A DNA stretch of 64,000 bases from Escherichia coli O157:H7 (GCF_013167455.1 NZ_CP038328.1), one strand, 5' to 3'; shown: positions 9,519 to 9,684, counted from the first letter of the stretch. A program made the numbers and translations. The notes: generated by a model not told the origin, from the letters alone.

Positions 9519-9684
9519 TGTGTAATCCTCACCATAAAGTTGAATAATATAATTTTTTTAAATATATTATTGTTGCGATATTGTACTGATCTATTTATTA
9601 AGGTTTAGTCATCTCCTTTTCCATTAAGGCACTCCCCGATATTAATCGGGAAGTACATTGGGATAAATCATAAAAAACTAATGA

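Follow-up and report, generated by a model that had tools for sequence, protein, structure and literature searches.

The AT-Rich Spacer between kbaY and agaB of Escherichia coli O157:H7: A Conserved mRNA Stem-Loop and an Antisense Promoter-Like Site in the Galactosamine Operon

Introduction

The aga/gam cluster feeds Escherichia coli on mucin-derived amino sugars, and one of its genes, agaB, has been reported to matter for the colonisation of calves by O157:H7, according to a citation in PMC6199705. The operon is usually drawn as a single AgaR-controlled unit. Between kbaY and agaB, it contains an AT-rich stretch, for which an earlier note on the same DNA proposed an internal promoter for agaBCDI or a regulatory or processing site. 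What, then, is this spacer: a promoter, a signal in the message or neutral DNA between two genes? The question was approached by computational analysis of 64,000 nucleotides of an O157:H7 genome (hereafter, the window), related genomes and published expression data. Coordinates are those of the window unless K-12 is named; they are converted as K-12 = 3293688 minus the window coordinate, which places the spacer at K-12 3284004-3284169.

Spacer and Its Neighbours

According to open reading frames and the RefSeq annotation, kbaY occupies 9685-10545 and agaB 9042-9518, both on the minus strand, as is the whole aga/gam cluster. Reading frames, annotation and base composition together define the 166 bp between them (9519-9684, minus strand) as an intercistronic spacer transcribed within the agaS-kbaY-agaBCDI operon. 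The 166-bp AT-rich gap described in the earlier note was found exactly at this place; the string quoted there is the plus strand of 9544-9591, i.e., the antisense strand of the operon. The GC content of the spacer is 28.3% vs. a mean of 50.1% in the 64-kb window, where just 1.4% of all 166-bp segments reach an equally AT-rich composition. GC content falls over the 3' end of kbaY, the gap and agaB and goes back up in agaC and agaD. The window is 100% identical to many O157 genomes.

It had also been claimed that the other gaps of the cluster are no longer than 40 bp. This does not hold for the agaA-agaS gap of 350 bp, which contains the known Ps promoter, three AgaR boxes and REP-like palindromes, and holds for the agaB-agaC gap by the K-12 annotation (38 bp) but not by the O157 annotation (71 bp). 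Within the agaS-agaI operon, the kbaY-agaB spacer is indeed an outlier.

On its agaB side, the spacer runs into the translation start region TTTATGG(T/C)GAGGATT (9516-9540, minus strand), with the Shine-Dalgarno sequence GAGGA at 9526-9530 and the ATG at 9516-9518; this region is invariant across Escherichia and Citrobacter. A purine block, AAAGGAG (9613-9619, minus strand; CUCCUUU in the antisense direction), is likewise conserved in the alignment of these two genera and is a candidate element. An AT-only palindrome obtained from the fold, AATAATATA-N11-TATATTATT (9543-9571, strand-neutral), overlaps the promoter hexamers considered below. It was rejected as an RNA hairpin or operator: conservation of its right arm does not extend to Citrobacter, and the palindrome is absent from the RNAalifold consensus.

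Several short reading frames were rejected as well. The ATG of the MTKP frame that follows AAAGGAG is specific to O157, being ATA in K-12 and most strains, and therefore no conserved small ORF exists there. The candidate upstream frame ATGGTGAGG has no Shine-Dalgarno sequence, and neither its frame nor its stop is conserved. The MVRITQ frame overlapping the agaB start and short antisense frames are likewise not conserved.

Distribution and Conservation

The spacer is carried in a single copy, with 92.5-100% identity, by 5258 of 5426 complete E. coli genomes (97%), so it is not an oddity of the assembly or of the strain. The median number of its places per genome was 1 across 5278 genomes, and this single-copy state led to the rejection of a REP/BIME, repeat or mobile-element origin. 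A search of Rfam at a permissive threshold gave just chance-level matches to eukaryotic snoRNA and lncRNA for the spacer, with no family near the threshold.

In a scan for AgaB, using one genome per species, kbaY was found directly upstream of agaB across Enterobacteriaceae. Spacers are homologous among Escherichia (164-167 bp) and Citrobacter (177-188 bp, except for one strain that carries a 144-bp insertion and has 335 bp). Unrelated spacers of 38-113 bp occupy this place in Enterobacter, Lelliottia, Pluralibacter, Phytobacter, Kosakonia and an unclassified metagenome-assembled genome. The spacer of Trabulsiella (173 bp) is also unrelated and has two other strong hairpins, and that of Pseudocitrobacter (200 bp), again unrelated, carries a canonical terminator after kbaY, consisting of a 12-bp stem and ATTTTTG. 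Since the spacer differs between genera, the element of Escherichia and Citrobacter was added specifically in their lineage, and agaB can generally be expressed without it. At the same time, structured elements following kbaY seem to have originated repeatedly, because Trabulsiella and Pseudocitrobacter have unrelated structured spacers of similar length.

Conservation was studied in 10 related sequences, from four Escherichia lineages and six Citrobacter genomes, in an alignment of 226 columns. Against a background of 76% mean column identity, four conserved blocks stand out: the stem-loop after kbaY; AAAGGAG; AATAATATAT separated by 17 bp from ATTCAA; and TTTATGG(T/C)GAGGATT at the Shine-Dalgarno sequence of agaB.

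The spacer might be neutral: when the galactosamine phosphotransferase (PTS) module was assembled or horizontally transferred, an AT-rich seam could have remained, now coated by H-NS, with spurious hexamers and a conservation that merely reflects limited divergence. Such an origin would agree with the dip in GC content from the 3' end of kbaY to agaB and its recovery in agaC and agaD, with the unrelated and much shorter spacers that other genera have in the same gene order and with the description of agaB as a case of spurious initiation suppressed by H-NS (PMC8894471). The 144-bp insertion tolerated in C. amalonaticus S646 can be added to this list, but it spares all the conserved blocks, namely, the hairpin, both hexamers and the ribosome-binding region. 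This insertion (L013:2819-2962) is located between the antisense -35 hexamer and the ribosome-binding site of agaB; it has inverted repeats at its ends, AGAGCCTGCCCACCAGGC...GCCTGATGGGCCAGACTC, and looks like a miniature transposable element.

Stem-Loop after kbaY

The first of the conserved blocks is an mRNA stem-loop of 12 bp, GUACUUCCCGAU-UAAU-AUCGGGGAGUGC (9629-9656, minus strand), which begins 28 nt past the kbaY stop codon and forms the core of the minimum-free-energy fold. Its pairing is kept in 92.5% of cells in the 10 Escherichia and Citrobacter sequences vs. 27-45% in slid controls, and 7 of the 12 stem pairs show compensatory changes on both sides. None of the shuffles matched the observed pairing or covariation score, and RNAalifold, applied to the full 226-column alignment, returned this helix as the sole consensus structure. 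The hairpin is degraded in E69, one divergent E. coli lineage. On this comparative evidence, it is a genuine conserved RNA structure. Compensatory double changes in more than half of the pairs, together with the strand asymmetry described below, would be unexpected for neutral DNA.

G-U pairs occupy 21 of 120 stem cells and become A-C mismatches on the opposite strand. In segments containing the hairpin, the sense strand folds better by 4-16 kcal/mol in most orthologs. Both observations suggest that the structure is formed by the operon transcript and is not a DNA palindrome or a feature of an antisense RNA.

What might such a hairpin do? Expression data from strain EDL933 show a step-down along the operon: in bovine rectal content, log2 fold changes were 4.57 for agaY, 3.01 for agaB and 2.11 for agaC, and in small-intestine and rumen contents agaY was induced, but agaB and agaC were not (PMC6199705). 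The step-down could come from a higher basal level of agaB instead. The hairpin probably marks a transcript boundary, either by blocking 3' exonucleases or by weak attenuation; this role is the most likely one because of its position, the lack of a U-tract and the step-down in expression.

A leaky intrinsic terminator, or a part of a Rho-dependent one, which ends most transcripts after kbaY, would have the same position. Its GC-containing 12-bp stem is stable and stands immediately past the stop codon, 166 nt of untranslated RNA follow, agaB is induced less than kbaY, and Pseudocitrobacter has its canonical terminator at the analogous place. However, a U-tract after the stem is missing in every Escherichia and Citrobacter ortholog (the E. 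coli stem is followed by CUUAAUGG, and that of Citrobacter by non-U sequence), and a terminator scan called no intrinsic terminator in the gap on either strand, the operon strand included. The spacer is A/U-rich with nearly equal numbers of C and G (23 and 24), which is not the C-rich, G-poor profile of Rho loading, and rectal content induces agaB and agaC along with kbaY. We regard termination as very unlikely to be the function of this stem.

Antisense Promoter-Like Site

A consensus scan of 9000-10600 revealed a single sigma-70 promoter-like site, which lies in the spacer and is directed against the operon. It has 9 of 12 matches and consists of the -35 hexamer TTGAAT (9540-9545), a 17-bp spacer and the -10 hexamer TATATT (9563-9568), all on the plus strand (9540-9568). 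The predicted start is at ~9575 (+), or K-12 3284113 (-), so that the site faces the hairpin and kbaY. In a simple position-weight model, it scored 12.4 bits, the top value among ~640,000 positions on both strands of the 64-kb window; Ps (TTGAAC-17-TAGATT) reached 11.1 bits in the same model.

Exact or near-exact hexamers at a spacing of 16-17 bp were found in 9 of the 10 orthologs. The same hexamers and spacing, TTGAAT-17-TATATT, occur in E. whittamii, Escherichia sp. E1V33 and four Citrobacter genomes; near-identical variants are TTGATT-16-TATATT in E. albertii and TTGAAT-17-TACATT in two Citrobacter genomes, and only E69 has a weaker site. In the 10 related sequences, 3 of the 12 hexamer columns are variable vs. 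94 of 116 in the rest of the gap (p = 1e-4); the difference from the site's own 17-bp spacer, where 11 of 17 columns vary, is marginal (p = 0.06). Among 137 placements of a 6+17+6 template, this one is the best conserved.

Promoter-like hexamers easily arise in AT-rich DNA. Nevertheless, these hexamers vary much less than the remainder of the gap does, and a distance of 16-17 bp between them is kept while the intervening sequence drifts, which argues, as do the features of the hairpin, against neutral filler. Taken together, the evidence makes a purely neutral spacer quite improbable in our opinion. The antisense promoter would be expected from its sequence to fire; among the published starts listed for the region, none falls at K-12 3284100-3284199. 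A possible terminator for an antisense RNA at 9968-9989, the sole terminator-like site on that strand, was rejected as weak and of chance level; it is situated in the kbaY coding sequence, and its conservation is explained by that of the KbaY protein.

Sense-Strand Promoter Candidates and Regulator Sites

The sense strand is poorer in such signals. Its best sigma-70 candidates have 5.5-7.4 bits and poor -35 hexamers, vs. 11.1 bits for Ps. One of them, with 7.1 bits and a predicted start at ~9632, is the weak combination TTTATC (9662-9667)-17-TAATAT (9639-9644), occupying 9639-9667 on the minus strand with its -10 hexamer in the hairpin loop; it recurs in other Escherichia. Another -10-like hexamer, TAATAT (9564-9569, minus strand), overlaps the antisense -10 within the conserved block AATAATATAT. 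Its -35 is poor (TAGATC, with an 18-bp spacer; 5.5 bits), and it would give a start at ~9557 and a 39-nt leader. Judged by this arrangement, it is a possible bidirectional partner of the antisense site. When Citrobacter was compared, the sense candidates showed no positional conservation outside Escherichia.

Known regulators have left no recognisable trace in the gap. A scan for the AgaR operator, whose consensus we took to be WRMMTTTCRTTTYRTTTYNYTTKK (Ray and Larson 2004), gave 6 matches with up to 3 mismatches in the 64-kb window, where 0.12 would be expected by chance, and 0 matches in 9519-9684. All six fall in the control regions agaA-agaS and agaR-kbaZ. Scans of the gap with the consensus motifs of CRP, IHF, Fis, NagC/Mlc, Cra, ArgR and H-NS gave nothing above chance. 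In the agaA-agaS gap (11713-12062), AgaR-consensus matches are situated at 11764-11787 (+), 11842-11865 (-) and 12001-12024 (-), REP-like palindromes at ~11900-11990, and a Ps-like TTGAAC-17-TAGATT with its -35 starting at 11836 (-).

Published Expression and H-NS Data

A dedicated and physiologically used forward promoter, driving agaBCDI independently of Ps and perhaps governed not by AgaR but by H-NS and its antagonists, is the alternative that published data address most directly. Forrest et al. (2022) presented agaB as an example of an AT-rich gene targeted by H-NS, in which H-NS suppresses initiation in vivo and in vitro (PMC8894471). In the K-12 hns mutant compared with the wild type, agaB rose 16-fold, kbaY 7-fold and agaC 4-fold, and agaS was unchanged; the log fold changes are +4.02 for agaB, +2.08 for agaC, +1.08 for agaD and +1.01 for agaI, a gradient declining along the operon, and +2.88 for kbaY, -0.43 for agaS, -0.18 for kbaZ and -0.56 for agaR (PMC8894471). 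The rise in kbaY and agaB with unchanged agaS means, therefore, that H-NS silences internal starts here. The spacer also has the surroundings of an H-NS-silenced AT-rich region, with 28% GC, derepressed kbaY, agaB and agaC and H-NS-bound segments on both sides: those listed in PMC8894471, K-12 3283857-3283947 and 3284318-3284863, flank the gap, which is itself not among the segments listed. In addition, overexpression of SlyA, an H-NS antagonist, raised agaS-kbaY-agaBCDI 2.5-fold (PMC5797941).

Where the internal starts lie is a separate question. The hns-derepressed starts listed in PMC8894471 are K-12 3283908, 3284569, 3284673 (+) and 3284823 (+), and several of those listed are inside agaB and agaC, not in the gap. 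The first of them, a Cappable-seq start that was 12.6-fold up in the hns mutant (PMC8894471), corresponds to 9780 (+), or the minus strand of K-12, outside the gap. Its strand and -10 hexamer were assigned in this analysis from the sequence: it stands exactly 7 nt past a perfect TATAAT at 9768-9773 (feature 9768-9780, plus strand) and is therefore an antisense start inside the 3' end of kbaY. The rise in kbaY in the hns mutant may come from this start rather than from a promoter in the gap. Another of the listed starts, K-12 3284673 (+), is a sense start at the agaB-agaC junction (9015, minus strand); it follows a TAATAT, stands 12 nt before the agaC start of K-12 and was 8-fold up in the hns mutant (PMC8894471), so that agaC has a cryptic start of its own. 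Transcription that is normally silenced by H-NS thus arises internally near kbaY and agaB, on both strands and independently of Ps.

Forrest et al. also gave agaB an mRNA of its own, with 684 nt expected from a cloned fragment that includes the gap (9868-9043; PMC8894471). Its start is back-calculated to ~9632-9639, in the gap, if the vector tail is ~87-94 nt, which is an estimate, and TTTATC-17-TAATAT with its start at ~9632 is the closest candidate. The tail length of ~87 nt is our assumption, taken from the lambda oop sequence.

Genetic data from E. coli C bear on the same alternative. There, the deletion of agaS is polar on agaBCD but not on kbaY, and the mutant does not grow on galactosamine with agaS-kbaY or agaBCD alone and is rescued by agaSYBCD (PMC3668189). 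The gap, therefore, supplies insufficient independent forward transcription, and growth on galactosamine needs read-through from Ps.

A forward promoter would thus account for the agaB-centred rise in the hns mutant, the separate agaB mRNA and the effect of SlyA, and it could use the conserved TAATAT that overlaps the antisense -10; the true terminator after kbaY in Pseudocitrobacter implies a separate agaB promoter in that genus. Against it stand the sense matches of at most 7.4 bits with poor -35 hexamers and no positional conservation outside Escherichia, the lack of AgaR, CRP, IHF, Fis, NagC, Cra or ArgR sites beyond chance, the derepressed starts listed inside agaB and agaC, the polarity in E. 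coli C, where agaBCD alone are insufficiently expressed, and the genera with spacers of 38-66 bp, which do without such a promoter. A dedicated forward promoter is, in our opinion, unlikely. Forward initiation appears to exist, but to be weak and cryptic and insufficient for growth on galactosamine without Ps. Of the two proposals of the earlier note, the internal promoter for agaBCDI is supported only in part, with some internal initiation in the hns mutant, while a regulatory or processing site is supported by the covarying hairpin of the mRNA strand and the conserved promoter hexamers.

Discussion

Summarizing these data, we consider the spacer to be, with a probability of a little over one half (about 0.55), a composite region between two cistrons that is transcribed as part of the Ps-driven agaS-kbaY-agaBCDI mRNA and is not a dedicated forward promoter. 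In its 5' third, the 12-bp stem-loop without a U-tract would form a transcript boundary, an exonuclease barrier or weak attenuator, and would keep the agaS-kbaY message, which serves both sugars, above that of the galactosamine-specific PTS genes. The AT-rich 3' two-thirds would be a promoter-like island amid an H-NS-silenced patch that extends from the 3' end of kbaY through agaB into agaC. The strongest and best conserved element of this island, the antisense TTGAAT-17-TATATT, would be aimed across the hairpin into kbaY, and its sense promoters, weak and mostly consisting of a -10 only, would, in the absence of H-NS, yield a cryptic transcript of agaB. In the wild type, the expression of agaBCD that suffices for growth on galactosamine would come from Ps read-through.

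A bolder extension is conceivable, by which a cis-antisense RNA across the hairpin and the 3' end of kbaY, pairing or colliding with the Ps transcript, sets the read-through into the galactosamine PTS genes in a GadY-like and H-NS-gated manner; we hold it for improbable. GadY is a cis-antisense small RNA encoded in the gadX-gadW spacer that directs the processing of a polycistronic mRNA. By analogy, the antisense promoter-like site faces the 3' end of the upstream gene and could direct such processing; unlike GadY, the antisense RNA is putative here, and there is no convincing terminator on the antisense strand.

The composite spacer can be compared with several other known systems. Intercistronic stem-loops that stabilise mRNA include the REP hairpins of malE-malF and the stem-loop of Rhodobacter puf. 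The hairpin after kbaY resembles them in having no U-tract, in following the upstream cistron and in the stronger induction of upstream than of downstream genes. Unlike the malE-malF REP type, it is single-copy, has no match in Rfam and is not a REP/BIME element; a stabilising role may be proposed for it by analogy.

Another class is that of bidirectional promoters that stem from the symmetry of -10 elements (Warman et al.; bioRxiv 10.1101/2020.01.31.928960; PMC12825309). In the spacer, TATATT and TAATAT overlap in a 10-bp conserved block, and the predicted starts, 9575 (+) and 9557 (-), are 18 bp apart, a spacing reportedly typical of such promoters; in contrast to those promoters, both starts are predictions here, and a good -35 belongs to the antisense arm only.

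The closest relatives of the island are the H-NS-silenced promoter-like sites studied in the Grainger laboratory (PMC8894471). It shares with them an AT-rich composition, sigma-70-like hexamers on both strands, H-NS nearby and a derepression in the hns mutant that is focused on agaB and kbaY and does not depend on the operon promoter. The difference is that the published starts lie inside the agaB coding sequence and were called spurious (PMC8894471), whereas the best site of the spacer is intercistronic and antisense, with hexamers and spacing conserved in two genera. The spacer is a concrete case for asking whether "spurious" promoters in AT-rich DNA can be under selection.

The promoters of the cluster itself, the AgaR-controlled Ps, Pz and Pr (Ray and Larson 2004, cited in PMC3668189), have in common with the spacer the operon and the requirement that PTS expression be regulated. 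They differ from it in their operators, as the six AgaR matches are confined to two control regions and the gap has none, and in strength, as nothing on the sense strand of the gap comes near the 11.1 bits of Ps.

The spacer suggests a second layer of control in an operon generally treated as one AgaR unit. The boundary hairpin may allow the enzymes common to both sugars to exceed the galactosamine-specific transporter in expression, and the layer also comprises an H-NS-silenced promoter island, the best element of which faces backward. Such a layer would help to explain why the deletion of agaS is polar on agaBCD and not on kbaY, why some gut contents induce agaY but not agaB and agaC and why agaB and kbaY, but not agaS, rise in the hns mutant. 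The stakes are modest because all these kinds of elements are already well known. H-NS silencing of agaB is already published; descriptions of the conserved hairpin or the conserved antisense promoter were not found in the literature searched.

Other Features of the Window

Some features outside the spacer were noted in the same DNA. The annotated agaC is 11 codons shorter here than in K-12. An internal stop splits agaI (6663-7418, minus strand) in this O157 genome, where the gene is annotated as a pseudogene. At 755-1968, an insertion of IS1203, a member of the IS3 family, splits a fimbrial gene downstream of yraJ.
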